From assembly GCA_001805695.1 (NCBI GenBank), contig MHGT01000036.1, forward strand, positions 4,146 to 42,985: a DNA stretch of 38,840 nucleotides. The letters run 5' to 3'. This DNA is from Omnitrophica WOR_2 bacterium RIFCSPHIGHO2_02_FULL_67_20 (GTDB taxonomy: Bacteria; Omnitrophota; Gorgyraeia; Aquiviventales; Aquiviventaceae). The stretch's first letter is position 1; each line of letters opens with the position of its first letter. The notes under the pieces were generated by a model, which saw only the letters and a program-made list of their open reading frames with translations, made no database searches and had not been told where the DNA came from. The translations under genes and the position numbers were made by a program. Shown here one piece after another: positions 18,372 through 38,840 of this stretch.

Positions 18372-18384
18372 CGACGCCATCTCC

Positions 18385-21498: not shown

Positions 21499-21504
21499 TA
21501 TAAT
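21499..21504 (+). promoter_or_regulatory. Candidate -10 box (TATAAT) upstream of ugd
   Basis: A perfect TATAAT 36 nt upstream of the ATG. The GAGGAG RBS is at 21527-21532. The -35 region is weak and overlaps the second palindrome. Confidence 0.4.
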
Positions 21505-21539
21505 TGGAGTTCCCATTCCGTCGTCTGAGGAGCCAGCAT

Positions 21540-22856: not shown

Positions 22857-22886
22857 GGATGGCGCCGACCCGGACCGCCGCCGGCC

Positions 22887-22997
22887 GTTCACCCCGTACC
22901 ACGGAAGCCCCGCCTGTCAAGGCGGGGAGGAAGTGGCAATCGACCCCGAAGGGTATTTTCGGAAGCCACGGGCGTAAGCCCGTGGTACGGGGTTCGC
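22887..22997 (+). repeat. Conserved ~112-nt structured palindromic element, copy B
   Basis: It has the same termini and the same three helices as 16455-16568. Two stem positions changed in a compensatory way (CCCCGCCT-GTCA-AGGCGGGG and CCACGGGC-GTAA-GCCCGTGG). Confidence 0.7.
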
Positions 22998-23542
22998 CCA
23001 TCGCCGGAGTCCCCCGCGGGGATCGGGAGAGCCGCTCCGCGCGTCCGGAGGTCCCGGCCCCGGCCTCGCGGACGGCGGGGAAGCCGCTCATTCAGGGGCT
23101 GCGGACCAAAGCGCTGCGCGTGGTGCCGGACGAGCGCGGCCGTCTCTTCGAGATGCTGCGGCAGGATGACGAGCTGTTCCTGAAGTTCGGGCAGGCGTAC
23201 TGCACGACCGTGAACGCCGGCGTGGTGAAGGGCTGGCACTATCACAAGAAACAGCAGGACAACTTCGTCTGCGTCAGCGGCATGATCAAGCTGGTGGCGT
23301 ACGACAGCCGGCCGGACTCGCCGACCAAGGGCCTCCTCAACGAATTCTTTATCGGCGTCCACCATCCGCTGCTCGTGCAGATCCCGCCGGGCGTCTACCA
23401 CGGCTTCAAAGGGCTCACCGACCCGGAGGCGATCGTCATCAACCTCTCGACCGAGCCCTACGACCATCAGCAGCCCGACGAGTACCGCCTGCCGCCGCAC
23501 ACGAGCGAGATCCCCTATGACTGGAACCACAAGGATGGGTGA
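22982..23542 (+). CDS. rmlC: dTDP-4-dehydrorhamnose 3,5-epimerase-like cupin (short RmlC-type); start uncertain
   Basis: The conserved core starts near 23090 (LIQGLRTKALRVVPDERGRLFEML...GWHYHKKQQDNFVCVSG...PPGVYHGF). The only canonical in-frame start upstream of the core is the GTG at 22982, inside repeat copy B. Confidence 0.75.
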   Translation: MVRGSPIAGVPRGDRESRSARPEVPAPASRTAGKPLIQGLRTKALRVVPDERGRLFEMLRQDDELFLKFGQAYCTTVNAGVVKGWHYHKKQQDNFVCVSGMIKLVAYDSRPDSPTKGLLNEFFIGVHHPLLVQIPPGVYHGFKGLTDPEAIVINLSTEPYDHQQPDEYRLPPHTSEIPYDWNHKDG

Positions 23543-23560
23543 TCGGCGTTGGGACGTGCG

Positions 23561-24328
23561 ATGAAGGGCGTCGTCCTGGCGGGCGGGCTGGGCAAGCGGC
23601 TGGAGCCGCTCACGCGCATCACGAACAAGCACCTGCTGCCCATCTACGACCGCCCGATGATCTTCTATCCGCTCCAGACGCTGGTCGAGGCCGGGCTGAC
23701 CGAGATCCTCCTGGTGACCGGCGGCAATAATGCGGGGGATTTCCTCCGGCTGCTCGGCAACGGCCGGGAGCTCGGCCTCAAGCACCTGCACTACACCTAC
23801 CAGCGCGGCGAGGGCGGCATCGCGGAGGCGCTGGACCTGGCGGAAGATTTCGCCGCCGGCGAGCCCATCGTGGTCATTCTCGGCGACAACCTGGTCGAAC
23901 GTTCGATCCATCCCTATGTGGAACGCTTCGCCGCCCAGGGCTCGGGCGCCAAGATCCTCCTCAAGGAGGTGGACGACCCCTGGCGCTTCGGCGTCCCCGA
24001 TCTGCAGGGGGACCGCATCGCGGGCATCGAGGAGAAGCCGCGGCATCCGAAGTCCCCGTACGCCGTCACCGGCATCTACATGTACGACGCGCAGGTGTTC
24101 GGCATCATCAAGACGCTGAAACCCTCGGGCCGCGGCGAGCTGGAGATCACCGATGTCAACAATGCGTACATCGCGCGCGGGCAGATGACCTACGACATCC
24201 TCGAGGGCTGGTGGACCGACGCGGGGCTGCCGGAGACCCTCTACCGCGCGACGACCCTGATGCGTGAACGTCGGCTCAAGGAGGGTGGAGCATCGGCCGA
24301 GCCGGTCATGCTGGTCAAGCATCCATGA
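23561..24328 (+). CDS. rmlA: Glucose-1-phosphate thymidylyltransferase-like sugar nucleotidyltransferase (short form)
   Basis: MKGVVLAGGLGKRLEPLTRITNKHLLPIYDRPMIFYPL, and EKP..P.S.YAVTGIYMYD. Confidence 0.88.
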   Translation: MKGVVLAGGLGKRLEPLTRITNKHLLPIYDRPMIFYPLQTLVEAGLTEILLVTGGNNAGDFLRLLGNGRELGLKHLHYTYQRGEGGIAEALDLAEDFAAGEPIVVILGDNLVERSIHPYVERFAAQGSGAKILLKEVDDPWRFGVPDLQGDRIAGIEEKPRHPKSPYAVTGIYMYDAQVFGIIKTLKPSGRGELEITDVNNAYIARGQMTYDILEGWWTDAGLPETLYRATTLMRERRLKEGGASAEPVMLVKHP

Positions 24329-25377
24329 CCGCCACACCCCGCACGAGCCTGTTGGTCACCGGGGGTGCCGGCTTCATCGGTTCCCATTTCGTTCGTTCCT
24401 GGCTGGCGACGCATCCGGCCGATACCGTCGTGACCTTCGATCTTCTGACGTATGCCGGCTCACGCGACCGACTGGCTGCTCTTAAGGCCGACACCCGTCA
24501 TCGGTTCATCCAGGGAGATATCTGCGACGCGGCCGCCGTGCGCCGCGCGATCAGTGGCTGCCGGCTCGTCGTGCATTGCGCCGCCGAAACCCACGTCGAT
24601 CGCTCCATCACGGATGCGGCCCCATTTCTGCGCACCAACGTCGAGGGGACCTACACGCTTCTGCAAGAAGCGCGTACGGCGGGGGTCAGCCGGTTCCTCC
24701 ATGTCAGCACCGATGAAGTCTACGGGCCGGTGGAGCGCGGGGCGGTGGATGAGCAGGCCCCGCTGTCGCCCCGCAGCCCGTACGCGGCCAGCAAGGCGGC
24801 CGGCGATCTGTTAGCGCAGTCCTTCCGGGACACCTTCGGGTTTCCGGTCATCGTGGCGCGCCCGACGAACATTTACGGGCCGGGGCAGTTCCCGGAGAAG
24901 TTTATCCCGCTGTGCATCACGAATGCGTGCGCGGGCGTGCCCGTGCCGATCTACGGCGACGGACAGCAGCGACGCGCCTGGCTCTTCGTGGACGATGCGT
25001 GCGACGCGCTGCGCATCCTCGTCGAGCGCGGGACGGCTGGCGAGGTGTACAACGTGGCCAGCGGCGACGAGCGGGCGAATCTAGACACCGCCGCAATGGT
25101 CCTGGCCAAGCTCGGCCGGCCGCAAGAGCTCTTGCAGCGCGTGGCGGACCGCCCGGGCCATGACCGCCGCTACGCCATGGACGACGCAAAGCTGCGCGCC
25201 CTCGGCTGGCAGCCGCAGACGCCGTTTGCGCAGGGGCTGGAAGCGACGATCGACTGGTACCGCGCCAACGAGGCGTGGTGGAAACCGCTGACGCAGACGC
25301 TCCGTGAAGACGCTTATCACTGGCTCAACCGGACTCCTGGGCCACTCGCTCATCCGGCGCCTCGTCGCGTTGGGTGA
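24325..25377 (+). CDS. rmlB: dTDP-glucose 4,6-dehydratase
   Basis: [28 protein letters not shown] and the C-terminal IDWYRANEAWW. Its ATG overlaps the rmlA stop (ATGA). Confidence 0.95.
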   Translation: MTATPRTSLLVTGGAGFIGSHFVRSWLATHPADTVVTFDLLTYAGSRDRLAALKADTRHRFIQGDICDAAAVRRAISGCRLVVHCAAETHVDRSITDAAPFLRTNVEGTYTLLQEARTAGVSRFLHVSTDEVYGPVERGAVDEQAPLSPRSPYAASKAAGDLLAQSFRDTFGFPVIVARPTNIYGPGQFPEKFIPLCITNACAGVPVPIYGDGQQRRAWLFVDDACDALRILVERGTAGEVYNVASGDERANLDTAAMVLAKLGRPQELLQRVADRPGHDRRYAMDDAKLRALGWQPQTPFAQGLEATIDWYRANEAWWKPLTQTLREDAYHWLNRTPGPLAHPAPRRVG

Positions 25378-26197
25378 AGTGACGGGGCTCTCCCGGCATG
25401 CGCCGTCCGGGTCTGTTTCGGGGCGGCATGTCGTCTGCGACCTGCTCGATGCGCAGCGGACCGCCACTGTGATCCGGGACTGCCGGCCGGACGTGGTCAT
25501 CCACGCGCAGGCGCTGTCAGACGTGGATGCGTGCGAGCGGGAGCCCGCGCTCGCGGACGCCCTGAATGTCACGGCGATCCGGCACGTGCTCCGGGCCCTC
25601 GAGGGGACCGGGGCCCTCGTCGTCTACGTCAGCACCGACTACGTGTTCGACGGGACGAAGGCGGCGCCGTATGATGAACGGGACGAGCCCCGGCCCATCA
25701 GCGTCTACGGGCGGTCAAAGCTTGCGGGGGAGCGGGCGGCGCTGGCGGCGCCGCGTTCGATCGTCGTGCGGACGAGCACGCTCTTCGGACCCGGCCGGAT
25801 GAGTTTCTGCGACCACGTCGTCAAGCAGCTCACGGCCGGCGAACCGGTACAAGCGTTCACCGACCAGGTCACGTCGCCGACGTACAGCGAGGATCTCGCC
25901 GACGGCCTGGCGCAGCTGAGCCAGACTGTCCGGGACTCGTGGAGCGAGCAGGGGCCGCGCGTGTTCCACGTCGCCAGTGCGGGCAGCTGCAGCCGGGTGG
26001 AATTCGCGAGGCGCGTGGCGGATTTGCTCGGGGCGCCCCGCACACTCGTTTGCGGGATCCCGATGGCCCAGCAGCGCCGCCCGGCGCTGCGGCCGGCGTA
26101 CTCGGCGCTCACAACCGTGCACAAGAATCAGGCAATGGGGAGGATGCTACGACCATGGGACGAAGCGCTCGCGGCCTATCTGCGTCAGCGCCGCTAG
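25304..26197 (+). CDS. rmlD: dTDP-4-dehydrorhamnose reductase
   Basis: (V)KTLITGSTGLLG, STDYVFDG and YGRSKLAGE. The GTG start lies 74 nt inside the rmlB ORF. Confidence 0.9.
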   Translation: MKTLITGSTGLLGHSLIRRLVALGEVTGLSRHAPSGSVSGRHVVCDLLDAQRTATVIRDCRPDVVIHAQALSDVDACEREPALADALNVTAIRHVLRALEGTGALVVYVSTDYVFDGTKAAPYDERDEPRPISVYGRSKLAGERAALAAPRSIVVRTSTLFGPGRMSFCDHVVKQLTAGEPVQAFTDQVTSPTYSEDLADGLAQLSQTVRDSWSEQGPRVFHVASAGSCSRVEFARRVADLLGAPRTLVCGIPMAQQRRPALRPAYSALTTVHKNQAMGRMLRPWDEALAAYLRQRR

Positions 26198-27498
26198 CTC
26201 GGCTAGCCAAGCGCATTACCGCCCGGACGGCGCGCGTCGGCGTCATCGGGCTCGGTTACGTCGGTCTGCCGCTCGCCGTCGAGTTCGCGAAAGAAGGGTT
26301 CACCGTCACAGGGATTGACCTCGACGCCGCGCGGGTCCGGAGGGTCAACCGCGGGCGCTCCTATATTCTCGACGTGCCGAGCGACGATCTCCGGAAGCTG
26401 CGCCGCGCGCGGCGGCTCTCGGCGACCTCCTCGTTCGATGTGCTCGCCAAGCAGGACGCGATCATCATCTGCGTCCCCACGCCGCTGCGCAAGACCCGTG
26501 AGCCGGACATGTCATTCATTATCTCCGCGACGAATGAGATCGCCCGCCGGGCGCGCCGGGGCCAGCTCATCGTGCTGGAAAGCACGACGTATCCGGGGAC
26601 GACGGACGAGGTGGTCCGACCAGCGATCGAGGCGCGCGGTCTCACGGTCGGGAAGGACGTCTGCCTCGCCTTCTCGCCCGAGCGGATCGACCCGGGCAAT
26701 GCGGTGTACACGACGCGCACGATTCCGAAGGTGATCGGCGGCACGACGCCGCTGTGCACGAAGCTGGCCGCGGCCCTCTACGGCTCGGCGATCCACCGGA
26801 CGGTGCCGGTCTCCTCCTCGCGGGTGGCCGAGATGGTCAAGCTGCTGGAGAACACCTTCCGCGCCGTCAACATCGGCCTCGTCAACGAGATGGCGCTCAT
26901 CTGCGACCGCCTCGGCATCGACGTCTGGGAGGTGATCGAGGCGGCGCGGACCAAGCCGTTCGGGTTCATGCCGTTCTACCCGGGCCCCGGCATCGGCGGC
27001 CACTGCATCCCCTCCGACCCCATCTACCTTGCCTGGAAGGTGCGCGTCCACGGTTTCGAGGCGCGCTTCATCGACCTCGCCTCGCAAATCAACGGGGCGA
27101 TGCCGGAGTACGTCGTCGAGAAAGTCGGGAAGGTGCTGAACGACCGGCGCACGGCGCTCAAGGGCGCTCGGGTGCTGCTCCTGGGCCTGGCGTACAAGAA
27201 AGACGTGGGCGATTTGCGCGATTCGCCGGCCTTCGATGTCGCGCGGCTCCTCGCGGAGCGTGGGGCCGTCATCGCCTACCACGATCCGTTCGTCCCATCG
27301 GCGGAGCTGAATGGCGCGCGGTACCGCTCGACGCCGCTCACCGCCGCCGCCCTGCGGCGGAGCGACTGCGTCGTCCTGCTCACGAACCACTCGTCGGTGG
27401 ACTATGCCTTCGTGCTGCGCAAGGCGCCGGTCATCGTGGACACGCGCAACCAGTACGGCAGCCTCGGGCGGTCCTCCGCGAAGGTCGTGAAATTGTAA
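26155..27498 (+). CDS. UDP-N-acetyl-hexosamine 6-dehydrogenase (WbpA/WbpO/TviB/WecC-type nucleotide-sugar dehydrogenase)
   Basis: RVGVIGLGYVGLPLAVEFAKEGF, GPGIGGHCIPSDP and GLAYKKDVGDLRDSP. The start is taken as the ATG at 26155. The ORF-track N-terminus before it overlaps rmlD in another frame. Confidence 0.88.
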   Translation: MGRSARGLSASAPLARLAKRITARTARVGVIGLGYVGLPLAVEFAKEGFTVTGIDLDAARVRRVNRGRSYILDVPSDDLRKLRRARRLSATSSFDVLAKQDAIIICVPTPLRKTREPDMSFIISATNEIARRARRGQLIVLESTTYPGTTDEVVRPAIEARGLTVGKDVCLAFSPERIDPGNAVYTTRTIPKVIGGTTPLCTKLAAALYGSAIHRTVPVSSSRVAEMVKLLENTFRAVNIGLVNEMALICDRLGIDVWEVIEAARTKPFGFMPFYPGPGIGGHCIPSDPIYLAWKVRVHGFEARFIDLASQINGAMPEYVVEKVGKVLNDRRTALKGARVLLLGLAYKKDVGDLRDSPAFDVARLLAERGAVIAYHDPFVPSAELNGARYRSTPLTAAALRRSDCVVLLTNHSSVDYAFVLRKAPVIVDTRNQYGSLGRSSAKVVKL

Positions 27499-27514: not shown

Positions 27515-27766
27515 ATGAACAGAGCAGGTGGACGAATGGCCGGACGGACGGCGGGCGCACATTGCCTGTTCTGTGGACGGTTGATGGCGGCACGGTCCGG
27601 CCGACCGGCGCTGCGGTGCCGCGGCTGCGGGGCGCACTTTGCGGCTACGTGGGATCAGGCAGGCTGCTTGACCGGCCTACGGATCGAATCCTGCGGGGCA
27701 AGGCCGTGCTGCCGGGATGCTGCTCCAGCAGGCGGACGCAGGCAACGGAAGCGCGTGGAGGGTTGA
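27515..27766 (+). CDS. Possible small zinc-ribbon protein (83 aa)
   Basis: CLFCG-N14-CRGCG motif. The stop overlaps the next ATG (TGATG), as at other junctions in this cluster. Arg-rich, with weak GC3 bias, so it could be spurious. Confidence 0.3.
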   Translation: MNRAGGRMAGRTAGAHCLFCGRLMAARSGRPALRCRGCGAHFAATWDQAGCLTGLRIESCGARPCCRDAAPAGGRRQRKRVEG

Positions 27767-28710
27767 TGGCGCGATATCTTGTGACAGGCGGGGCGGGGTT
27801 CATCGGCTCGCATGTTGTGGACCGGCTGCTCGCCGACGGCCACCAGGTGCGCGTGCTGGACGACCTCTCCTCCGGCCGGCGGGAGAACCTCGCGCAGGCG
27901 GGCAAGCGCGTCGAGTTCATCCAGGCGGACATCCGCGACCGCGCCGCGATGGGCAAGGCGTGCAAGGGTATTACGCGCATCATCCACGCCGCCGCCTGGC
28001 GCAGCGTCCCGAAGTCCATGGCCGATCCCTACGGCTACACCGACGTCAACGTCCTCGCCACGGTGAACCTCCTCGAAACGGCGGTGAAGGAGAAGGTGAA
28101 GCGGGTCGTGTGCGTCTCGTCCAGCTCGGTCTACGGCGATGCGACGAAGATGCCGCTGCGCGAGGACGCCCCGACTCTTCCGATCTCCCCCTATGCGGCC
28201 TCGAAGCTGGCCGACGAGCTCTTCTGCGGCCTCTTCCACCGCGCCTTCGGGCTCGAGACGGTCGCCGTGCGGTACTTCAACGTCTTCGGCCCCCGGCAGA
28301 GCCTGGAGAACGAGTACGCGGTGGTGATCCCGAAGTTCATCGTCTGTCTCCTCCGCAAGGAATCGCCGCCGATCTACGGCGATGGCACGCAGTCGCGCGA
28401 CTTCACCTACGTGGATAACGTGGTCGAGGGCACCATCGCGGCCTCCCAGGTTCCCGGCGTCAGCGGCGAGGTGTTCAACGTGGCGCTCGGCGAGGAGCAC
28501 ACGGTGCTCCATCTCCTGGAGGAGCTGAACTCGATCATGAGCCTCTCCATCAAGCCGGCCTTCAAGCCCCCGCGAGCCGGCGACGTCAAGCGCACCTTCG
28601 CCGATTCCTCCAAGGCCGAGCGGCTGCTCAAGTGGAAGGGGCGCATCAGCTTCTCCGAGGGGCTGCGCCGCACCGTCGACTGGTTCCGGGCGCACCCGCC
28701 GAAAGCGTAG
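27766..28710 (+). CDS. NAD-dependent nucleotide-sugar 4-epimerase (WbpP/TviC-like SDR)
   Basis: [22 protein letters not shown] and YAASKLADE. It lies directly after the UDP-N-acetylhexosamine dehydrogenase, as in the WbpO/WbpP and TviB/TviC pairs. Confidence 0.88.
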   Translation: MARYLVTGGAGFIGSHVVDRLLADGHQVRVLDDLSSGRRENLAQAGKRVEFIQADIRDRAAMGKACKGITRIIHAAAWRSVPKSMADPYGYTDVNVLATVNLLETAVKEKVKRVVCVSSSSVYGDATKMPLREDAPTLPISPYAASKLADELFCGLFHRAFGLETVAVRYFNVFGPRQSLENEYAVVIPKFIVCLLRKESPPIYGDGTQSRDFTYVDNVVEGTIAASQVPGVSGEVFNVALGEEHTVLHLLEELNSIMSLSIKPAFKPPRAGDVKRTFADSSKAERLLKWKGRISFSEGLRRTVDWFRAHPPKA

Positions 28711-28711
28711 T

Positions 28712-28806
28712 GCGTTGGGCCCGTTGTGCCGGTTGAGCCTGTTGGAAGGTTGAATACCCTCTCACCAAACGGGCCTAACGGACAAAACCGGCCTAACGGG
28801 TCAAAC
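28712..28806. repeat. 9-bp-unit palindromic array, GCCCGTT family, copy 4 of 4 (more degenerate)
   Basis: gcgttgg gcccgttgt gccggttga gcctgttgg ... caaacgggc ctaacggac aaaaccggc ctaacgggt. Confidence 0.8.
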
Positions 28807-28812
28807 CCGCAG

Positions 28813-29931
28813 ATGCCCACCATTCCGCTCATCGATTTGAAGGCGCAATACCGCGCCATCAAGCCCGAGATTGACCGCGCGATCCAGCGGGTGCTCGAGA
28901 GCGGTCAGTTCATCTTGGGGCCGGAGATCGAGGCGCTGGAAGGGGAGTTGGCCGCGTACTGCGGGGTACCGCACGCCGTGGGGGTGGCCTCCGGGACCGA
29001 CGCGCTGGCACTGGCGCTGCGGGCCAGCGGGATCGGTCCGGGCCATGAAGTCATCACGTCGGCCTTCAGCTTCGTCGCCACGGCTGAAGCGATCGTCGCC
29101 GTCGGGGCCGTCCCGGTGTTCGTGGACATCGATCCGGTCACCTGCACGCTCGATCCCGCCAAGCTTCCCCACGCGATTTCTGCCCGGACGAAAGCGATCC
29201 TGCCGGTGCACCTCTACGGGCATCCCGCCCGGATGGAGGCGATCACGACGCTGGCGCAGACGCATCGCCTGACGGTGATCGAGGACTGCGCCCAGGCGAT
29301 TGGCGCGCGCGCTGATGGACGGTCCGTCGGCTCGTTCGGCCAGGCTGGGGCGATTAGCTTCTATCCCACCAAGAATCTCGGGGGCTACGGCGACGGCGGA
29401 ATGGTGGTGACCCGCGACGCCAAGGTGGCGGAGCAGGTGCGGCTCCTGCGCGCGCACGGCAGCCGCGAGCGCTACCGCCACCTCGTCCTCGGAACGAACA
29501 GCCGGCTGGATGAGCTCCAGGCCGCTGTGCTGCGGGTCAAGCTGCGCCACCTCGAGCGCTGGACCGAGGCTCGGCGGCGGCACGCCGCGGCCTACGGCGA
29601 CGCATTCCGGCGTCATCATCTGGACGACATCGTGCTCCCGCAAGAGCTGCCCGGCTCCCGGCACGTCTACCACCTCTATCCCATTCGTGTCGCGGAGCGC
29701 GATCGGGTCGCCGCAGCCCTCGCGCGGCAGGGCATCGAGACGCAAGTCGCCTACCCGTCCAGCCTCCCCGCACAGCCGGCGCTGCAACCGTACGCGCCGC
29801 AGAGTCCTCCGTGTCCGGTTTCTGACGCGGTCGCCAAGGACATCCTCGCGCTGCCGATCTACCCTGAGCTGACCCCGGAGACGATCGAGCAGGTCGTCCT
29901 GCAGATCGCGCGGATGCGCGTCCATTCGTGA
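28813..29931 (+). CDS. DegT/DnrJ/EryC1/StrS-family PLP-dependent sugar aminotransferase
   Basis: IPLIDLKAQY, GVASGTDALALAL, and FYPTKNLGGYGDGG (PLP lysine motif). Confidence 0.92.
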   Translation: MPTIPLIDLKAQYRAIKPEIDRAIQRVLESGQFILGPEIEALEGELAAYCGVPHAVGVASGTDALALALRASGIGPGHEVITSAFSFVATAEAIVAVGAVPVFVDIDPVTCTLDPAKLPHAISARTKAILPVHLYGHPARMEAITTLAQTHRLTVIEDCAQAIGARADGRSVGSFGQAGAISFYPTKNLGGYGDGGMVVTRDAKVAEQVRLLRAHGSRERYRHLVLGTNSRLDELQAAVLRVKLRHLERWTEARRRHAAAYGDAFRRHHLDDIVLPQELPGSRHVYHLYPIRVAERDRVAAALARQGIETQVAYPSSLPAQPALQPYAPQSPPCPVSDAVAKDILALPIYPELTPETIEQVVLQIARMRVHS

Positions 29932-29979: not shown

Positions 29980-31185
29980 ATGCCCGCCTGTGACGTGACC
30001 GTAGTCGGAGGCGGGATCGTCGGCCTGGCCACGGCGATGGTCTGGGAGCAGCGGTTCCCTGGCGCCAAGCTCATCGTGCTGGAGAAGGAGCCGGCGGTCG
30101 GGGCCCACCAGACCGGCCACAACAGCGGCGTCATTCACTCCGGGCTCTACTACCGTCCCGGATCGCTCAAGGCCCAGACCTGTGTCACCGGGGCGCGCCT
30201 GATGGCGGAGTTTTGCCAGGCGAACCGGATCCCCTACCGTCTCTGCGGGAAGCTCGTCGTGGCCACGGAGGCATCGGAGCTGGCCGCGCTCGAGCGGTTG
30301 TATCAGCAGGGGCTGGCCAATGGGGTCCCGGGCCTTGGGATGATCGGGCCGGAGCGTCTCCGGGAGCTGGAGCCGCATGCCAGAGGGCTCAAGGCGATCC
30401 ACGTGCCCAGCGCCGGGATCGTGGACTATGCGGCAGTCGCCCGCGCATTCGCCCGGATCATTGGGGCGCAGGGCGGGGAGATCCGAACGAGCAGCCGGGT
30501 CTTGCGGCTCATGAGACGGGAAGGGAGCTGGCTGGCGGAGACGACGACAGGGGAGGTTCGCTCACGCGCCCTGATCACCTGCGGCGGGTTGCACGCCGAC
30601 CGGCTCGCGGCGATGGCGGGCGGAAGACGCGAGCTGCGGATCGTGCCGTTTCGCGGAGAGTACTACGCATTGCTTCCTGAGCGCTGCTTCCTCGTGCAGG
30701 GGATGCTCTATCCCGTGCCCAACCCGGCGTTGCCGTTTCTCGGCGTCCATTTCACCCGGACGATCACTGGCGGCGTGCACGCGGGCCCGAACGCGGTCCT
30801 GGCGCTGGCGCGGGAAGGGTATCGGAAGGCCGACATCAATCTGCGCGATCTCCTCGACCTCGCGACCCATCCCGGATTTTGGCGTATGGCACGGACCTAC
30901 TGGCGGGTCGGTCTTGAGGAGAGCTATCGCTCTTGGAGCAAACGGGCCTTTGTCCGCACCCTGCAGCGGCTCGTGCCGGAGATCCGGCCCGCCGACATGG
31001 GAGCAGGCGGCAGCGGGGTGCGCGCGCAGGCGGTCGATTCGGCCGGCGCGCTCGTCGATGATTTCAACATCGTTCAGAGCGAGCACGCGATCCATGTCCG
31101 CAACGTGCCCTCGCCGGCCGCCACCGCCTCGATCCGCCTCGGGCAGCACATCGCTGACCTCGCGGCCTCCTCGTTCACAACATGA
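29980..31185 (+). CDS. lhgO: L-2-hydroxyglutarate oxidase/dehydrogenase (LhgO/YgaF-type FAD enzyme)
   Basis: VVGGGIVGLATA, HQTGHNSGVIHSGLYYRPGSLKA, PFRGEYY, LPFLGVHFTR and NVPSPAATAS all parallel E. coli LhgO as I remember it. Confidence 0.88.
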   Translation: MPACDVTVVGGGIVGLATAMVWEQRFPGAKLIVLEKEPAVGAHQTGHNSGVIHSGLYYRPGSLKAQTCVTGARLMAEFCQANRIPYRLCGKLVVATEASELAALERLYQQGLANGVPGLGMIGPERLRELEPHARGLKAIHVPSAGIVDYAAVARAFARIIGAQGGEIRTSSRVLRLMRREGSWLAETTTGEVRSRALITCGGLHADRLAAMAGGRRELRIVPFRGEYYALLPERCFLVQGMLYPVPNPALPFLGVHFTRTITGGVHAGPNAVLALAREGYRKADINLRDLLDLATHPGFWRMARTYWRVGLEESYRSWSKRAFVRTLQRLVPEIRPADMGAGGSGVRAQAVDSAGALVDDFNIVQSEHAIHVRNVPSPAATASIRLGQHIADLAASSFTT

Positions 31186-31191
31186 ACACGC

Positions 31192-31220
31192 TTGACTACG
31201 GGCTGAAAGTTAGCTAAAGT
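31192..31220 (+). promoter_or_regulatory. Sigma70-like promoter in an AT-rich island
   Basis: TTGACT (31192-31197), a 17-nt spacer, then TAAAGT (31215-31220). The 8-bp palindrome TTAGCTAA (31210-31217) overlaps the -10. Confidence 0.5.
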
Positions 31221-31274: not shown

Positions 31275-31553
31275 TTGACGAAGCGTTCCCTGACCCCTAA
31301 GCAGCAAACTGTGCTCGACTTCATCCAGCGCTTCTACGCCGAACACCGCCAGTCTCCCCTCATCCGAGAGATCCAAGCCGGTTGTCAGGTCGCCTCCTAC
31401 AAGTCGGCGTTAGACCGCCTCACGGCCCTCGAGCGCAAGGGCTACCTCAAGCGCCTCCCCAACAAACACCGGGGCATCAGGCTCGTCCGGCGCTTCGCGG
31501 AGCCCCAGGCGCAGCCGGGCAGCGCGCCCTCAGTGCTCGAAGGAGTGGCCTGA
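31275..31553 (+). CDS. LexA N-terminal (winged-helix DNA-binding) domain protein lacking the S24 peptidase domain
   Basis: [31 protein letters not shown]...[20 protein letters not shown] parallels the LexA N-terminal domain. The ORF ends ~20 aa later. TTG start. Confidence 0.72.
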
Positions 31554-31663
31554 TGCGCGTCCTCCTCACCGGAGGGGCCGGGTTCACCCCGCACCACCCC
31601 TCCTTGGCAGGATGGACGGTACAGGCCTGCTCGACACGGTGGGAGACCCCGCGATGGGTATGA
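31553..31663 (+). pseudogene. 5' stub of an SDR epimerase/dehydratase gene (first 11 codons only)
   Basis: The ATG overlaps the preceding stop (TGATG) and encodes [11 protein letters not shown]. Similarity is then lost, and the stub stops just past the real start of the next SDR gene ([15 protein letters not shown] at 31660). Confidence 0.45.
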
Positions 31664-32607
31664 GGGTTTTGATCACGGGGGGTGCGGGGTTCATCGGTTC
31701 CCATCTGTGCGACCGGTTCCTCGCCGAGGGCCACACCGTCATCTGCGTAGACAATTTTCTCACCGGCGCTGAGGCGAACATCGCCCATCTGCGCTCCAAA
31801 TCGTCATTCCAGTTCATCCGGCATGACATCTCGAAGTCCCTCGAAGTGGAGGGGGTAATTGACCTCATCCTCCATTTCGCCTCTCCCGCCAGCCCCATTG
31901 ACTACCTGAAGCTTCCCATCCAGACCCTGAAGGTGGGCTCCATCGGGACGATGAATGCTCTCGGGATCGCGAAGGCCAAGCGGGCGCGGTTTCTCTTGGC
32001 CTCGACGTCGGAGGTCTACGGCGATCCGGATGTGCACCCACAGGTCGAGACCTACTGGGGGCATGTCAACCCCATCGGCCCACGGGGGGTCTACGACGAA
32101 GCGAAGCGGTTTGCGGAAGCCATGACCATGGCCTACCACCGCGCGCATGGCGTGGACACGCGCATCGTGCGCATCTTCAACACCTACGGGCCGAGGATGC
32201 GCGCCAACGATGGCCGAGCGATCCCGGCCTTCATCAGCCAGGCACTCCGCCAAGAGCCCATCACCGCGTTCGGGGACGGCTCCCAGACGCGGTCGTTCTG
32301 TTATGTGGATGACCTGATCGAAGGGATCGTGCGGCTCTCCCGCTGCGCCTACCACGACCCGGTTAATCTCGGCAATCCCGAAGAATACACCATCCTCCAG
32401 CTCGCCGAGAAGATCATCGAGCTGACCAAGAGCCAGAGCCGGGTGGAGCTGCATCCGCTGCCGCAGGACGATCCCAAGCAGCGCTGCCCCAACATCAGCC
32501 TCGCGAAGCGGCTCCTCAACTGGAAGCCGCAGACCCCGCTGACAGATGGTCTGCGCAAGACCATCCCCTGGTTTGCCGAGCAGCTCAAGCGGTTTCCCGC
32601 GACATGA
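31660..32607 (+). CDS. UDP-glucuronate decarboxylase (UDP-xylose synthase)-like SDR
   Basis: [20 protein letters not shown]...[36 protein letters not shown] and [10 protein letters not shown] are typical of UXS-type enzymes. Confidence 0.88.
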
Positions 32608-33359
32608 ACGCTCCCGCGCGCGACGAGATGCTGCCACGCCCGGAACGCCGGGGTCCCGTTGCCGCCCACTTCCCGGACATGCGGCTTCTCCATGAAGTCA
32701 CCAAGAGCCCCCAGGTGACCCAGCGCGATCTCTCCCGGCGCATCGGCATGGCCCTCGGGTTGACCAACCTCATCCTGCGCCGGCTCATTAACAAGGGGTT
32801 CATCAAGATCGTGAACGTCGAGAAAAGCCGGATCCGCTACCTCGTGACTCCGAAAGGGATGATGGAGAAGGCCCGGCTGACGCACGAGTACATCGAGTAC
32901 TCGCTGTTATTTTATCGGAGCATCCGGGAGTTCCTGACGGAGCATTTCGCCCGCCTGGCGCAGGAGGGGCATCGCCGCGTGCTCCTCTGCGGGACGGGGG
33001 AGCTGGCCGAGATCGCGTGGTTGACCATGCAGCAGGTGGGACTGGAGCTTGTGGGCGTGATTGATGAGGCGCCCACCAGCAAACCCTTCTTGGGACGCCA
33101 GGTGCACAGCCTCGGCTATGCGGCGGAGGCTGAGTGTGACCGCATCGTCATCGCGTCGCTCGCTCCCCACCAGGCGCTGCTGAATCAGCTGGCATCGGTG
33201 GGGATCGAGGCGGAGCGGTGTCTGCTGGTCCCACAGCCGGGGAAGCCGCTCCCGCCCCTCGCACGCGATGCGGCGTCGCGTCCCCCCTCAACGGTTCACT
33301 GGGAAGAGGAGCAGTCCCCCACCCCCACCGCGGCCCCCTCTGGCACAGAGACCGCATGA
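32604..33359 (+). CDS. EPS-associated MarR-type winged-helix regulator fused to a Rossmann-like C-terminal domain
   Basis: The wHTH is [31 protein letters not shown]...YLVTPKG. The C-terminus ([13 protein letters not shown]...LVGVIDE...FLGRQV) resembles the nucleotide-binding-like domain of EPS priming transferases. Confidence 0.7.
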
Positions 33360-34363
33360 CACGCGCGCTGGTCACGGGCGGAGCAGGATTCATCGGCAGT
33401 CACCTGGTCGAGCGGCTGCTCGCCGACGGCCACACCGTGACGGTGCTGGATGACTATTCCTCCGGCGGACCGCGCAACCTCGCGCACCTCGTGCCCCACC
33501 CACGGCTCACGGTGCATCAGCAGGATGTCGCCGATGAGGCCGCCGTCGCGCCCTTCTTCCGCGGCGTGGACTGGGTCTTTCATCTGGCCGCCCTCGCCGA
33601 CATCGTGCCCTCCATCCAGCACCCCCTGCGCTACCACCACGCCAACGTGGACGGGACCATCAGTGTGCTGGAGGCCTCGCGCGCGGCAGGGGTCAAGCGG
33701 GTCGTGTACACCGCGTCCTCCTCCTGCTACGGGATCCCGGACGTCGTTCCGACGCCGGAGGAGGCCCCCATCCGGCCGATGTACCCCTATGCGCTGACGA
33801 AGTACCTCGGCGAAGAATATGCGCGGCACTGGGCCAAGGTGTACAAGCTGCCCTGCGTGTCGCTGAGGCTCTTCAACGTCTACGGGCCGCGGGCGCGCAC
33901 CTCCGGCGCCTACGGGGCCGTCTTTGGAGTCTTCCTCGCGCAGAAGCTCTCCGGCAAGCCGTTCACCGTCGTCGGAGACGGGTCGCAGACGAGGGATTTC
34001 ACGTTCGTGACCGACGTCGTGGAAGCGTTCCTCCGGGCCGCCGCGTCGGAGGTGGCCGGCGAGGTGCTGAACGTCGGGTCGGGGGACACCTACCCCATCA
34101 TGAGCCTGGTGGAGCGGCTGGGCGGGGGAACCATCGTCCACCTGCCGAAGCGGCCCGGGGAACCGGACTGCACGTTCGCGGACATCACGAAGATCCGTCG
34201 CCTGCTGGGATGGAACCCGCGGGTGACGTTTGACGAAGGAGTGCGCCGGATGCTGGAACATCTCGACGAGTGGAAGGAAGCGCCGGTCTGGACGCCGGAG
34301 TCGATCGCGCAGGCGACCCGGGAATGGTTCCAGTACCTGACCCCTGAACGGGCGGCCTCATGA
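33356..34363 (+). CDS. NAD-dependent epimerase/dehydratase (SDR)
   Basis: [23 protein letters not shown] and YALTKYLGE. Its ATG overlaps the previous stop (ATGA). Confidence 0.9.
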   Translation: MTRALVTGGAGFIGSHLVERLLADGHTVTVLDDYSSGGPRNLAHLVPHPRLTVHQQDVADEAAVAPFFRGVDWVFHLAALADIVPSIQHPLRYHHANVDGTISVLEASRAAGVKRVVYTASSSCYGIPDVVPTPEEAPIRPMYPYALTKYLGEEYARHWAKVYKLPCVSLRLFNVYGPRARTSGAYGAVFGVFLAQKLSGKPFTVVGDGSQTRDFTFVTDVVEAFLRAAASEVAGEVLNVGSGDTYPIMSLVERLGGGTIVHLPKRPGEPDCTFADITKIRRLLGWNPRVTFDEGVRRMLEHLDEWKEAPVWTPESIAQATREWFQYLTPERAAS

Positions 34364-35925
34364 GCGAGCAGGCGGCCGTCGCAACCGGATCCAGCGCCTC
34401 CGCGCGATCCGGCAAGATCAGGACGTTGAGCGAGCTCGAACGGATTCTGCAGGAGGCGCGCTCGGCAGGCCAGCGCATCACCCTCTGCCACGGCGTGTTC
34501 GACATCGTCCACCCGGGGCACATCCTGCACTTCAAGCAGGCCCGCGAGCAGGGCGATCTCCTGGTCGTGACCATCACGCCGGATCACTACGTCCGCAAGG
34601 GGCCCGGCCGGCCGGTCTTCAACCAGCGGCTCCGGCTGGAGACGATCGCGGCGCTGGAGGACGTCGACTACGCGGCGCTCAACGAGTGGCCGACGGCGGT
34701 TGAGGCTATCAAGCGGCTCAAGCCGCACATCTACGTGAAAGGCAGCGACTACGCCAACCCGTCGGCGGATCTCACCGGGCGCATCATTGAAGAGGAAGCC
34801 GCGGTGCAGTTGGTGGGCGGACGGATCTTTTTCACCGACGGCGAGACCTTCAGCTCCAGCGCCCTGATCAACCGCTTCTTCAGCGCCTACCCCGAGGCGA
34901 CCCAGACCTACCTGCAGGCCATCCGGTCGCGCTACAGCGCCGATCGGGTCATCGAGCGGCTGCGCAGCCTCTCAGACCTGCGAGTCCTGGTGGTCGGCGA
35001 GGCGATCTTGGATCAGTACTGTTACTGCCTCCCGATGGGCAAATCCCCGAAGGAGACGATCGTCTCGACGCGATACGCATCCGAGGAGCATTTCGCCGGC
35101 GGCTCCCTGGCCATCGCGAACCACCTCGCCGGATTTTGCCGCGAGGTGACGCTGGTCACGGCGTTCGGGGCGGATCCGGAACACGCCCGTTTTGTGGAGT
35201 CCAAGCTGCGCCCCAACGTCCGGCTCGAAGCGATCATCACCGGTGATCGGCCGACCGTCACGAAGCGCCGGTACCTTGAGCCGAGCTTCCTCATCAAGAT
35301 GTTCGAGGTGCAATACCTCGATGATACGCCGGTTCCTGAACCCATCGAGCGCCAGGTGGCCGCCCGGATCGAGGCGAATCTTCAGGGACACGACTGCGTG
35401 GTGACCGCGGACTTCGGCCATGGCCTGATGACCGAGCGGCTGCGGACATTTGTCTCGTCAGCCGGCACGTTTCTCGCTCTGAACACGCAAAGCAACAGCG
35501 CCAACCTCGGGTTCAACCCCGTGACCAAGTACGAGCGGGCGGACTTCGTGTGCGTGGACGAGCCGGAGCTGAAGCTGGCGGCCAGGGACCGGTACGGGGA
35601 TCTCCAGAGCCTGGCCTCCAGCGTGAAGCAGCATCTCCGGGCGGGCTGTTTTCTGGTCAGCCGGGGGGCGAACGGCTCGTTCATCCTCTCAGATCGGTCG
35701 CCCGTCGTCGAGACCCCGGCCCTGGCGGTCAAGGTGGTGGACCGGACGGGCGCAGGGGATGCGCTCTTCGCCGTGACCTCGCCGTGCGTCTTCAGAGGAT
35801 TCCCGATGGACATGGTGGGATTCATCGGCAACTGCGTGGGGGCCTTGGCGGTGGAGATTGTCTGCAACCGCGATCCGGTGGATCCCGTGCTCCTCTATAA
35901 GTTCATCACCAGCCTGCTGAAGTGA
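34360..35925 (+). CDS. Bifunctional cytidylyltransferase-fold nucleotidyltransferase / PfkB sugar kinase (HldE/RfaE-like, domains in reverse order)
   Basis: The N-terminus has CHGVFDIVHPGHILHFKQAREQGD.LVV (HxGH nucleotidyltransferase). The C-terminus has VLVVGEAILDQYCY...GGSLAIANHLAG...DRTGAGDALFA (PfkB kinase). Confidence 0.82.
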   Translation: MSEQAAVATGSSASARSGKIRTLSELERILQEARSAGQRITLCHGVFDIVHPGHILHFKQAREQGDLLVVTITPDHYVRKGPGRPVFNQRLRLETIAALEDVDYAALNEWPTAVEAIKRLKPHIYVKGSDYANPSADLTGRIIEEEAAVQLVGGRIFFTDGETFSSSALINRFFSAYPEATQTYLQAIRSRYSADRVIERLRSLSDLRVLVVGEAILDQYCYCLPMGKSPKETIVSTRYASEEHFAGGSLAIANHLAGFCREVTLVTAFGADPEHARFVESKLRPNVRLEAIITGDRPTVTKRRYLEPSFLIKMFEVQYLDDTPVPEPIERQVAARIEANLQGHDCVVTADFGHGLMTERLRTFVSSAGTFLALNTQSNSANLGFNPVTKYERADFVCVDEPELKLAARDRYGDLQSLASSVKQHLRAGCFLVSRGANGSFILSDRSPVVETPALAVKVVDRTGAGDALFAVTSPCVFRGFPMDMVGFIGNCVGALAVEIVCNRDPVDPVLLYKFITSLLK

Positions 35926-36962
35926 TGGGGATGTCTGTGCGATTTCCTCGCGTGGCGGTCATCGGGGGCGCCGGCTATGTCGGAAGCGCCTTGGTGCCCG
36001 CACTCCTGGCGGCCGGCTATGAGGTGACGGTGGCGGACCTCTTCCTCTTCGGGGAGCAGGTCTTCGATGGACTCAAGGCGCGCTCGTCCCTGCGCACCGT
36101 CAAAGTCGATATCCGGGATGAGGCCGCGCTCACCGCCGCGCTCCGAGGCGTTGAGGCGGTGATTCATCTGGCCTGCATCTCCAACGACCCGAGCTTCGAG
36201 CTGAACCCGCGGCTGGGCAAATCCGTCAACTACGACGCGTTCTTCACCATCCTGCGCGCGGTCCGGTCCAACGGCGTGAAACGGTTCATCTACGCCTCCA
36301 GCTCCAGCGTCTACGGCGTCAAGGACCAGCCGGAGGTGACCGAGGAGACACCCTGCGAGCCGCTCACCGATTATTCCCGCTACAAGCTCTTCTGCGAGCA
36401 GGTGCTGCGGTCGGAGGGGGTGGGGGAGGGCGAGTGGGTGATCGTGCGCCCGGCGACGGTCTGCGGCTACGCGCCGCGGCTGCGGTTGGATCTCACGGTG
36501 AATATCTTGGCCATCCACGCGCTGGTCAACAAGCGGATCCGGGTCTTCGGCGGGGCCCAGCTGCGCCCCAACCTCAACATGAAGGACATGGTGGCCGCCT
36601 ACCGGCTCCTGTTGGACGTCCCGCGCGAAGCGGTCCACGGGAAGACCTTCAACGTCGGGTACCAGAATCGCACCGTCGCCGAGATCGCCGAGCTCGTCCG
36701 GAGCCGCATCGGCGACCCGGGCATTGCGATTGCGATGGAGCCGACGGACGATCTGCGCTCCTACCACATCAACTCGGATTGGATCCGGCGGGCGCTGGGC
36801 TTCGTCCCCCGCTGGACGATCGAGGACGCGATTGACAGCCTCTGCGCGGCATACCGGGAGGGGAAGATCCCGGAGCCGCTCACCCATCCGCGGTACTACA
36901 ACATCAAGACCATGCAGGCCCTCAAACTGGAGGAACAGCTCGTTGCCTCATCCCGCAGCTGA
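35925..36962 (+). CDS. NAD-dependent epimerase/dehydratase (SDR)
   Basis: VAVIGGAGYVGSALV, ASSSSVYG and YSRYKLFCE. The start overlaps the previous stop; GTG 35922 and ATG 35931 are alternatives. Confidence 0.85.
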   Translation: MGMSVRFPRVAVIGGAGYVGSALVPALLAAGYEVTVADLFLFGEQVFDGLKARSSLRTVKVDIRDEAALTAALRGVEAVIHLACISNDPSFELNPRLGKSVNYDAFFTILRAVRSNGVKRFIYASSSSVYGVKDQPEVTEETPCEPLTDYSRYKLFCEQVLRSEGVGEGEWVIVRPATVCGYAPRLRLDLTVNILAIHALVNKRIRVFGGAQLRPNLNMKDMVAAYRLLLDVPREAVHGKTFNVGYQNRTVAEIAELVRSRIGDPGIAIAMEPTDDLRSYHINSDWIRRALGFVPRWTIEDAIDSLCAAYREGKIPEPLTHPRYYNIKTMQALKLEEQLVASSRS

Positions 36963-36984
36963 GACAGTCCGGTCCGCGCCGCGC

Positions 36985-38091
36985 ATGCGCGTACGCTACT
37001 CGTACCTGCCGCAGCAATTTGCCGAGCCGGAGGAGATCCTGGCGGCCATCCGGGCGCACCTGCAGACGTGCCACCTCACCCTGGGGCCGGAGGTCGGGCA
37101 GTTCGAGCGCGCGTTTGCCTCCCTCATCGGCACGACGTTTGCGATCGGCGTGGCCAGCGGCACCGATGCGCTGGCGCTGAGCCTCCGGGCGCTTGGGATC
37201 GGCCACGGGGATGAGGTCATCACCGCCGCCAACACGTTCATCGCGACAGTGGGCGCCATCAACGCGGCGGGGGCCCGGCCGGTCCTGGTCGATGTGACCC
37301 CGGCGTTCACCATCGATCCCGGCCGCATCGAGCGCGCGATCACGGCAAGGACGAAAGCGGTCATTCCGGTCCACCTCACCGGCGAGGTTGCGGACATGGA
37401 GCCGATCCTGGCACTGGCCAGGCGGCGCCGGCTGCAGGTCGTCGAGGACGCCTGCCAGGCGATTACGGCATCGTCCCGAGGACGGCGTGCCGGCGCCATG
37501 GGTGTGCTGGGCGCCTTCAGCCTGCATCCGCTCAAGAACCTGAACGTGTGGGGAGACGCGGGGGTGATCGTGACGAACGACCCGGCGCTGAATGAGCGGC
37601 TGAGGCTCCTGCGCAACCACGGACTGAAGAACCGGGATGAGGTGGAAATCCTCGGCTACAACAGCCGCCTGGATTCGATCCAGGCTATCGTGGGGAACTG
37701 GCTGATCCGCCAGGTGGACGACATCACCAATCGCCGGATCGCCAACGCGGCCGCCTACGATGCGGCGTTCGGAGATCTGGATGGGGAGATCACGGTTCCG
37801 CCGCGGCGGCCCGACGTCCGGCGCGTCTTCCATCTCTATCAGCTCTATGCCAGGCGGCGGGATGCGCTCTACCGCTATCTCCACGCCAACGGCATCGAGG
37901 CGAAGATCCACTATCCGATTCCGCTGCCGCTCCAGCCCGGCCTGGCGCACCTGGGGTACCGCCCGGGGGATTTCCCGGAGACGGAGCGCCAGGCGGCGTC
38001 GCTCATCACCTTGCCGGTGGACCAGCACCTATCGGAGGAGCAGATCCGCTACGTGATCGAGGTGGTTCGAGAGTTCTGCCGGAGCCGATGA
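36985..38091 (+). CDS. DegT/DnrJ/EryC1/StrS-family sugar aminotransferase
   Basis: GVASGTDALALSL, FSLHPLKNLNVWGDAG and LRNHG. Confidence 0.92.
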   Translation: MRVRYSYLPQQFAEPEEILAAIRAHLQTCHLTLGPEVGQFERAFASLIGTTFAIGVASGTDALALSLRALGIGHGDEVITAANTFIATVGAINAAGARPVLVDVTPAFTIDPGRIERAITARTKAVIPVHLTGEVADMEPILALARRRRLQVVEDACQAITASSRGRRAGAMGVLGAFSLHPLKNLNVWGDAGVIVTNDPALNERLRLLRNHGLKNRDEVEILGYNSRLDSIQAIVGNWLIRQVDDITNRRIANAAAYDAAFGDLDGEITVPPRRPDVRRVFHLYQLYARRRDALYRYLHANGIEAKIHYPIPLPLQPGLAHLGYRPGDFPETERQAASLITLPVDQHLSEEQIRYVIEVVREFCRSR

Positions 38092-38840
38092 CCCCGATGG
38101 TCCCGCTTGAGACGGCCGCGCGCGCCACACCGCGCGTGCCCTACGCCGACTTCCCGGCGCAGTTCGCCGCCCAGCGCGAGGAGCTGCTGGGCGTGATGGA
38201 GCGGGTCCTGCGCCGCGGGGATTTCATCCTGGGCGAGGAGGTCGGAACACTCGAGCGCGACATCGCCGCCCTGTGCGGGCTGCGCCATGCCGTCGGCGTC
38301 GCCAGCGGGACCGACGCGCTGATCCTCGCCTTGAAAGCCCTCGAGATCGGTCCGGGCGATGAGGTGATCACCGTGCCGAACTCCTGGATCTCCTCGACGT
38401 CCAGCATCGTGCTCTCCGGCGCGCGGCCCGTCTTCGTGGATGTGCGGGATGACTTCAACATGGATCCGGCGCTGATTGAGCCGGCGATCACGCCGCGGAC
38501 CAAGGCGATCCTGCCGGTCCATCTGACCGGACGGTGCGCGGACATGGAGGCCATCTGCGCCGTCGCCGCCCGGCACGGCCTGGCGGTGATCGAGGATGCC
38601 GCGCAAGCACTTGGAGCCGGGCTCACGGGGCGCGCGGCCGGCTCCTTCGGGACGATGGGCTGCTTCAGCTTCCATCCGCTCAAAAACCTCAGCGGCATCG
38701 GGGACGGCGGGATGGTGGTCACGCGCGATGACCGGTTGGCCGAGCGGCTGAGGCTCCTGCGCAACCACGGGCTGCGCAGCCGCGATGAGGCGATCCTGTG
38801 GGGGCTGAACTCCCGGCTGGACACCATCGATGCCGCGGTG
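38088..38840 (+). CDS. DegT/DnrJ/EryC1/StrS-family sugar aminotransferase (3' end beyond the window)
   Basis: The ATG overlaps the previous stop (ATGA). Motifs are GVASGTDALILAL, FSFHPLKNLSGIGDGG and LRNHG. The frame is open to the window end. Confidence 0.9.
   Translation, partial: MTPMVPLETAARATPRVPYADFPAQFAAQREELLGVMERVLRRGDFILGEEVGTLERDIAALCGLRHAVGVASGTDALILALKALEIGPGDEVITVPNSWISSTSSIVLSGARPVFVDVRDDFNMDPALIEPAITPRTKAILPVHLTGRCADMEAICAVAARHGLAVIEDAAQALGAGLTGRAAGSFGTMGCFSFHPLKNLSGIGDGGMVVTRDDRLAERLRLLRNHGLRSRDEAILWGLNSRLDTIDAAV

Follow-up and report, generated by a model that had tools for sequence, protein, structure and literature searches.

A candidate L-2-hydroxyglutarate recycling gene in a nucleotide-sugar island of an Omnitrophota bacterium

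Introduction

Sugar-nucleotide dehydrogenases that use 2-oxoglutarate (2-OG) as oxidant have been described in bacteria. In Pseudomonas aeruginosa, WbpB reduces 2-OG to D-2-hydroxyglutarate (D-2-HG) (Xiao et al. 2021, PMC8651671). This product is recycled by D2HGDH (PA0317), and loss of D2HGDH lowers O-antigen (PMC8651671). Enzymes of the WbpB/WlbA type fall into two classes, the P. aeruginosa enzyme working by a ping-pong mechanism with 2-OG and those of B. pertussis and C. violaceum being sequential and 2-OG-independent (PMC10622841). In Campylobacter jejuni, the short-chain dehydrogenase/reductase (SDR) Cj1427 holds reduced nicotinamide adenine dinucleotide (NADH) so tightly that added NAD+ does not displace it; the bound NADH is reoxidised by 2-OG, and the product is L-2-HG (PMC10680097). 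Here we describe lhgO, a gene predicted to encode an L-2-HG oxidase, located within a nucleotide-sugar island of Omnitrophica WOR_2 bacterium RIFCSPHIGHO2_02_FULL_67_20. The gene lies in a stretch of 38,840 nucleotides (hereafter the window), which covers positions 4146-42985 of contig 36 of a metagenome-assembled genome (MAG) of 845 kb in 42 contigs, 73% complete and about 67% G+C. The source names of its closest homologues agree with a place in Omnitrophota.

In the usual view, L-2-HG is a toxic by-product and LhgO serves in repair or in lysine catabolism. Coupling of WbpB or SerA to D2HGDH is already published, as is the formation of L-2-HG by Cj1427. A first-pass annotation of the window had taken the recycling of 2-HG within amino-sugar clusters to be undescribed. 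This does not hold for the D-form, whose loop is published (PMC8651671); for LhgO, our literature search found no paper describing a linkage to glycan loci.

Results

The lhgO open reading frame (ORF) at 29980-31185 begins with ATG on the + strand and encodes 401 amino acids. The protein matched the NCBIfam equivalog model NF008726 with 534.1 bits (cut-off 299) over model positions 1-388 of 389, and the Pfam DAO family (PF01266) with 185 bits over residues 5-394. The GxGxxG motif for binding flavin adenine dinucleotide (FAD) is present at the N-terminus as VVGGGIVG (residues 8-15). The best solved relative is Drosophila L2HGDH (PDB 8w75, 352 bits), in which 2-OG/L-2-HG is bound by S88, H92, Y289, L299, H302 and R393 (PMC10726252). 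These align with S49, H53, Y244, L254, H257 and R348 of the window protein, so that all six residues are kept, and they are invariant in an alignment of 15 homologues. One other DAO-family match was found in the MAG, a weak one of 37.6 bits. Judged by its sequence, the ORF is a true LhgO/L2HGDH orthologue, ordinary in every sequence test, and its predicted reaction is the oxidation of L-2-HG to 2-OG, with predicted L-stereospecificity. The first-pass annotation had identified the gene and its place after a 6-dehydrogenase, a 4-epimerase and a DegT aminotransferase as we find them. Its description of the flanks stands for the upstream aminotransferase and fails downstream: the large gene that comes next, at 31654-32607, encodes no epimerase; its product is a UDP-glucuronate decarboxylase/UDP-xylose synthase (UXS), which matches human UXS1 with 374 bits.

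A candidate source of L-2-HG is encoded 4.7 kb downstream of lhgO, where an SDR gene (35922-36962) starts within a heptose-type cassette and is followed by two DegT genes. The best solved relative of this SDR is Cj1427 (PDB 6VO6/6VO8, 123.5 bits; next match 84), the 6VO6 chain being 96% identical to C. jejuni genomes. In a tree of 22 rows, with outgroups mostly from the same window, the SDR grouped with Cj1427, with Cj1427 orthologues 53-59% identical to it and with LhgO-adjacent SDRs of other phyla (support 99/97); the 4-epimerase, UXS, RmlB, RmlD and other SDR of the window fell outside this clade. Members share the motif R-x-ATV-x-G-x-(S/A)-PR-(M/L)-R-x-DL-x-VN, which the window SDR carries as RPATVCGYAPRLRLDLTVN. 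Its gene directly follows an HldE-like gene and precedes the two DegT genes, the order expected for activation, oxidation and transamination. Its surroundings (HldE-like gene upstream; HAD, APH-like kinase and transketolase genes downstream) may indicate a heptose nucleotide as the putative substrate. The first-pass annotation had named WbpB as the source of 2-HG. A Cj1427-like SDR appears to fit LhgO better, because Cj1427 makes L-2-HG in C. jejuni. Our reading is that the island LhgO recycles L-2-HG from a 2-OG-using sugar-nucleotide dehydrogenase, for which the SDR at 35922-36962 is the best candidate in the window; we regard the case for it as evenly balanced.

We examined how often LhgO lies beside sugar genes elsewhere. 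The flanks (6 kb) of 84 diverse LhgO loci were scanned with the window proteins and the 6VO6 sequence. A Cj1427-clade SDR adjoined LhgO in two Verrucomicrobiota (these SDRs being 53-59% identical to Cj1427), five Nostocales and one Acidobacteriaceae MAG. In five Acidobacteriaceae, LhgO and UXS were divergent neighbours; in one Chloroflexales MAG, UXS immediately preceded LhgO on the same strand. The lineages with LhgO beside nucleotide-sugar genes, most often with Cj1427-clade SDRs, include Verrucomicrobiota, Cyanobacteriota, Acidobacteriota, Acidimicrobiia and Bacteroidota, and the genes are often 4-75 bp apart on the same strand. Among the Bacteroidota, Pedobacter sp. MW01-1-1 (L115; NZ_CP179926.1, about 2939953-2953122) has a tightly packed locus that begins with a TviB/WbpA-like dehydrogenase and LhgO and continues with a WbpE-like DegT, a WbpD-like acetyltransferase, a WlbA-like Gfo and LegB/LegC/PglD-like genes; a Saprospiraceae MAG has a similar arrangement. 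This Pedobacter is cultured, which makes the linkage tractable.

A second survey, starting from 80 loci of relatives of the window SDR, found an LhgO or LhgO-like gene within 6 kb in seven. Two of these were Acidimicrobiaceae carrying the cassette of the window, and in one of the two an ABC transporter is followed by LhgO, an SIS (GmhA-like) gene and then the two SDRs. Among 22 close homologues of Cj1427, two had an LhgO-like gene nearby.

To place these loci in an evolutionary frame, we labelled the 106 rows of an LhgO tree, which broadly follows taxonomy, by the presence of a sugar gene within 3 kb. The label changed 13 times, at least 8 of the changes being forced by well-supported branches, against 29.5 when shuffled; eight rows were chosen via the SDR surveys, and the seven of them that carry the label inflate the count. 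The unbiased 84-locus sample still holds several independent sugar-linked lineages. LhgO has come to lie in glycan loci repeatedly during evolution, more than by chance, and the linkage is recurrent but facultative. The first-pass annotation had called for a survey of lhgO with DegT/WbpB genes; with nucleotide-sugar genes as a whole, co-occurrence arose independently at least 8 times in the tree. Recurrent linkage in many phyla supports its general idea, that 2-HG is recycled in amino-sugar loci; its specific version, with WbpB, is not supported.

A divergent LhgO-like group, 30-37% identical to the window protein (L176, L177, L182, L219, L227, L038), also adjoins sugar SDRs. Its hosts are Gemmatimonadales, Woesearchaeota, Caldisericaceae and other Omnitrophota.

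We then compared the island among 30 relatives of the same family. In eight of 13 relatives with LhgO, the gene lies upstream of UXS and downstream of the first DegT gene (DegT1), of the epimerase or of RmlD. In a metagenome contig the rml genes have been shifted to a place behind the block of dehydrogenase, epimerase, DegT and LhgO, which is itself intact. A Cj1427-clade SDR occurs in ten of the 30 relatives, nine of which also have LhgO; both genes are present in nine, the SDR only in one, LhgO only in six and neither in 14, a distribution confounded by completeness and kinship. Four relatives (G015, G023, G001, G008) carry close Cj1427 orthologues within this island. In G001 (L240, C9 8297-11544) the slot between DegT1 and UXS is occupied by an HddC-like nucleotidyltransferase, GmhB, a Cj1428-like (GDP-fucose-synthase-like) reductase and a Cj1427 orthologue, with no lhgO; together these read like the GDP-heptose modification genes of Campylobacter. 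The Cj1427 orthologue (55% identical) was found by search, and the other three were identified by reading the sequence, GmhB having the motif CxH...CxCRKP.

Several findings weigh against the reading in which the SDR at 35922-36962 is the partner of LhgO. Identity between the SDR and Cj1427, the one enzyme for which tightly bound NADH and its reoxidation by 2-OG to give L-2-HG are known, is only about 31%. The 4.7 kb between the SDR and lhgO hold a promoter-like site and five genes. lhgO begins 48 bp past DegT1 with no promoter-like match in between, and a sigma-70-like match follows its stop, so that lhgO appears to close the operon upstream; promoter matches were called by consensus alone, 2 being found in the region against 1.0 expected. 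The closest structures of DegT2, which follows the SDR (3uwc top), are not clearly C4-aminotransferases. Beyond the window, 73 of the 80 SDR cassettes have no LhgO nearby, and the same is true of all eight Campylobacter and Helicobacter loci among the 22 close Cj1427 homologues. In Bacteroidota, the companions of LhgO are WbpA/E/D and a WlbA-like Gfo, and a Cj1427-like SDR is absent. Within the family, two relatives (G013 and G006) have an island LhgO but no Cj1427-clade SDR, and two (G001 and G008) have SDRs while their LhgO lies among housekeeping genes.

Two further points of this kind, the distribution of LhgO in the family and the history of its position, lead to a rival explanation, in which LhgO is a housekeeping repair enzyme that clears L-2-HG formed by side reactions of malate/lactate dehydrogenase, and its place in the island is one inherited rearrangement accident. 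LhgO is present in 15 of the 30 relatives and in ten of the 11 high-quality genomes, with or without the SDR. Five relatives keep it among unrelated housekeeping genes (HAD hydrolase, hibernation factor, enolase, thioredoxin). In the LhgO tree the island copies form one clade and these five copies another; because the two are separate, the island position in Omnitrophota amounts to about one relocation, and a single event suffices. Islands that lack LhgO (G021, G026) have DegT1 directly adjoining UXS, and the promoter-like site after lhgO also agrees with an accidental placement. Against this explanation, sugar placement arose at no fewer than eight independent places of the tree in other phyla, often with the close same-strand spacing described above, and the neighbours were repeatedly members of the one SDR clade known to yield L-2-HG. 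For a near-core gene such as this the explanation is a serious rival, yet we consider it unlikely that repair alone accounts for the position of lhgO.

We also considered a WbpB/WlbA-type Gfo enzyme as the partner, LhgO recycling the 2-HG of a 3-dehydrogenase that feeds DegT1 and whose gene lies outside the assembled MAG. DegT1 resembles C3-aminotransferases (282 bits to WbpE) and comes after a WbpA-like dehydrogenase, an order that calls for a 3-dehydrogenase, which the window does not encode. The block from the dehydrogenase to LhgO remains intact in the contig with relocated rml genes. In G013 a Gfo, a NeuD/PglB-type acetyltransferase and WecB are found 5 kb after LhgO, and the Pedobacter and Saprospiraceae loci group WbpA-like, LhgO, DegT, acetyltransferase and Gfo genes. 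The first-pass annotation had pointed to the rest of the genome for a WbpB homologue and a WbpD-like acetyltransferase. PF01408 (Gfo/Idh/MocA) had no match in the 845-kb, 73%-complete MAG, an absence that may reflect incompleteness because all 30 family relatives have Gfo genes. No WbpD-like acetyltransferase is encoded in the window; the genome as a whole gave a single match, to a hexapeptide protein of 32% identity encoded on a different contig. The stereochemistry does not agree either: P. aeruginosa WbpB yields D-2-HG, whereas the window enzyme has a predicted L-2-HG site, and with the D-form loop published, an L-specific enzyme does not fit the WbpB loop. Moreover, the Gfo enzymes found near LhgO had no match to 2-OG-dependent WbpB structures; that of Pedobacter is closest to 3q2i and 3q2k of the sequential, 2-OG-independent WlbA class (about 180 bits), and that of G013 resembles GnnA and archaeal UDP-GlcNAc 3-dehydrogenases. 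In G021 the same Gfo and acetyltransferase adjoin UXS, yet LhgO is elsewhere. A Gfo partner is, on these data, improbable. High-scoring Gfo genes of G023 and G008 were dropped, as they have no sugar neighbours.

A reading in which the protein acts directly on a sugar nucleotide or on a hydroxy-acid substituent, giving the keto group for DegT1 and replacing WbpB, is very improbable. In its favour, the four-gene block encodes no 3-dehydrogenase, DAO-fold enzymes are versatile and the divergent LhgO-like group lies beside sugar SDRs. Against it, the six 2-OG/L-2-HG residues are conserved, including the arginine for the C5 carboxylate, the match to animal L2HGDH reaches 352 bits and nothing sets the island copies apart from ordinary LhgO in the tree.

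The features of the island are listed in Table 1. All of its genes are on the + strand, and LhgO lies at the junction of two nucleotide-sugar modules. The MAG is very small for such a high G+C; relatives of the family span 0.7 to 2.2 Mb.

Table 1. Coordinates of features in and next to the nucleotide-sugar island (window positions).
Feature	Position	Strand	Evidence or remark
LptD-like gene	18253-21435	+	precedes Ugd
Ugd, UDP-glucose 6-dehydrogenase, first island gene	21504-22856	+	three UDPG_MGDP_dh domains: 217, 123, 127 bits
RmlC-like (dTDP-rhamnose set)	22634-23542	+	Pfam dTDP_sugar_isom, 55 bits
RmlA (dTDP-rhamnose set)	23549-24328	+	Pfam NTP_transferase, 167 bits
RmlB (dTDP-rhamnose set)	24325-25377	+	Pfam GDP_Man_Dehyd, 229 bits
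RmlD (dTDP-rhamnose set)	25304-26197	+	Pfam RmlD_sub_bind, 251 bits
WecC/TviB/WbpA-type nucleotide-sugar 6-dehydrogenase	26200-27498, start approximate (ORF open from 25939)	+	TIGR03026, 451 bits
UDP-HexNAc(A) 4-epimerase-like SDR (WbpP/WbgU/TviC-like)	27562-28710	+	PDB 6dnt 242, WbgU 202, WbpP 190 bits
DegT1 sugar aminotransferase (WbpE/DesV-like)	28726-29931	+	PF01041, 402 bits
LhgO / L-2-hydroxyglutarate dehydrogenase (FAD)	29980-31185	+	NF008726 534 bits; 8w75 352 bits
Sigma-70-like promoter match TTGACT-17-TAAAGT	31192-31220	+	AT-rich stretch just past lhgO stop
92-amino-acid ORF, LexA DNA-binding domain alone, without protease domain	31275-31553	+	PF01726, 55.9 bits
36-codon stub repeating UXS codons 1-11, then 25 unrelated codons and stop	31553-31663	+	
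UXS, UDP-glucuronate decarboxylase/UDP-xylose synthase	31654-32607	+	human UXS1 374 bits (PDB 2b69, 4gll)
MarR-family regulator associated with exopolysaccharide (EPS)	32604-33359	+	TIGR04176 69 bits (below cut-off 88); HTH_24
GalE-like SDR, first gene of heptose-type cassette	33218-34363	+	PF01370, 213 bits
HldE-like bifunctional enzyme	34360-35925	+	CTP_transf_like and PfkB domains
Cj1427-clade SDR	35922-36962	+	PDB 6VO6/6VO8 123.5 bits; clade motif
DegT2 aminotransferase	36724-38091, likely start near 37000	+	PF01041 347 bits; PDB 3uwc 381 bits
DegT3 aminotransferase	38088-38840, continues past window end (379 amino acids in contig)	+	

The order of the LptD-like gene and Ugd is conserved among relatives. 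The 6-dehydrogenase scored under the cut-offs of the UDP-ManNAc dehydrogenase (WecC) and TviB models. The domain of the 4-epimerase begins near codon 71, and the true start may be later; we rejected this protein as a hidden dehydrogenase, its closest structures being ordinary epimerases. The PDB matches of DegT1 were 7b0d (376 bits), DesV (2oga, 339), WbpE (282), QdtB (276) and ArnB (154), which makes it by sequence closest to C3-aminotransferases. The RmlC-like ORF was tried as a 3,4-ketoisomerase feeding DegT1 and rejected: an RmlD gene accompanies it, and it scores higher with PF00908 than with FdtA.

The gap of 426 bp between lhgO and UXS contains the promoter-like site and the LexA-domain ORF, which likely encodes a regulator heading the UXS/MarR transcription unit; a 95-amino-acid gene with PF01726 holds the equivalent position after lhgO in a related contig (L044). 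The 36-codon stub overlaps the stop of the LexA-like ORF (TGATG), and the genuine UXS start is at 31654. The unrelated part of the stub starts GGTTCACCCCGCACCAC and nearly matches the left end of a roughly 110-nucleotide element at 16455-16568, a sequence likeness that suggests insertion of a small mobile element in the 5' end of UXS, with a spare start restoring the gene.

In the heptose-type cassette, the GalE-like SDR is co-conserved with the SDR at 35922-36962 in 32 of the 80 loci. The HldE-like gene has a reversed domain order, with the nucleotidyltransferase N-terminal and the PfkB sugar kinase C-terminal, and all its scores against the HldE, rfaE_dom_I and rfaE_dom_II models were under the cut-offs. 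Past the end of the window, a HAD-like gene, an APH-like kinase gene and a split transketolase come after DegT3. The cassette, which spans 33218-38840 of the window and L004 1381-3590 and is seen in loci L132-L171, consists of the GalE-like SDR, the reversed HldE-like gene, the Cj1427-clade SDR, the HAD-like and APH-like kinase genes and the split transketolase, often with two DegT genes. Copies with 50-60% identity occur in Bradyrhizobium, Azospirillum, Rhodospirillaceae, Woesearchaeota, Anaerolineales, Acidimicrobiia and Pelagibacteraceae, and a variant in Coxiellaceae. The 80 loci show how widely it is spread, among Alphaproteobacteria, Woesearchaeota, Anaerolineales, Acidimicrobiia and other groups. 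Its product may be a heptose-derived amino sugar, and the cassette is apparently unstudied.

Discussion

The recycling of L-2-HG by the island LhgO would proceed as follows. The Cj1427-type SDR would keep NAD(H) tightly bound, oxidise a hydroxyl of the sugar nucleotide and retain the NADH, regaining NAD+ by a ping-pong reduction of 2-OG to L-2-HG. The DegT aminotransferases that follow would turn the keto-sugar into an amino-sugar using glutamate, with release of 2-OG. Without a recycler, each amino-sugar made would convert one glutamate into dead-end L-2-HG. LhgO would oxidise this L-2-HG back to 2-OG and pass the electrons to quinone or another acceptor, a step that would close the loop and pull the unfavourable alcohol oxidation. 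While the identity of LhgO with its active-site residues, the clade of the SDR and the recurrent linkage of both gene types are observed, we infer the use of 2-OG by the SDR, its formation of L-2-HG, the joint expression of the genes and the electron acceptor of LhgO.

More broadly, and more tentatively, it is possible that LhgO, a Cj1427-clade SDR and DegT form a self-contained module, in which 2-OG and L-2-HG act as a private redox shuttle and which many phyla, archaea among them, have put together independently. Such a module would wire oxidation and amination of the sugar to the respiratory chain and not to the NAD pool, and might serve other dehydrogenases that hold NADH tightly, for example the WlbA-like enzymes of Bacteroidota.

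If recycling by LhgO is true, it explains how Cj1427-type chemistry can run without the loss of one glutamate per sugar, and provides an L-form counterpart to the published coupling of WbpB or SerA to D2HGDH. An lhgO gene in a glycan locus would then be a genomic marker for ping-pong sugar dehydrogenases that show no activity when assayed with NAD+ in the standard way. The finding likewise draws attention to a heptose-type amino-sugar cassette that is widespread and apparently unstudied.

The window LhgO shares its fold and family model with Escherichia coli LhgO (YgaF) and eukaryotic L2HGDH, and every tested FAD and substrate residue is kept. The known bacterial context of lhgO is glutarate/lysine catabolism (csiD-lhgO) or metabolite repair, whereas here it is a nucleotide-sugar island. 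The window SDR and Cj1427 are both extended SDRs with YxxxK and the ATVxGxSPRMRxDLxVN motif, and each adjoins heptose-activating genes, putatively so in the window. They differ in that the window SDR is followed by aminotransferases and is probably linked to HldE-like (ADP-type) activation, while Cj1427 is followed by an epimerase and a reductase and is linked to the GDP type; Campylobacter, unlike the window locus, has no LhgO beside Cj1427. The WbpB- and SerA-D2HGDH systems of Pseudomonas follow the same logic, with a dehydrogenase that holds NADH tightly, 2-OG as its oxidant and a flavoenzyme recycler, sustaining O-antigen. There, the enantiomer is D, the dehydrogenase belongs to Gfo/Idh/MocA and D2HGDH is unlinked, whereas in the window the predicted enantiomer is L, the candidate dehydrogenase is an SDR and the recycler is encoded inside the sugar locus.

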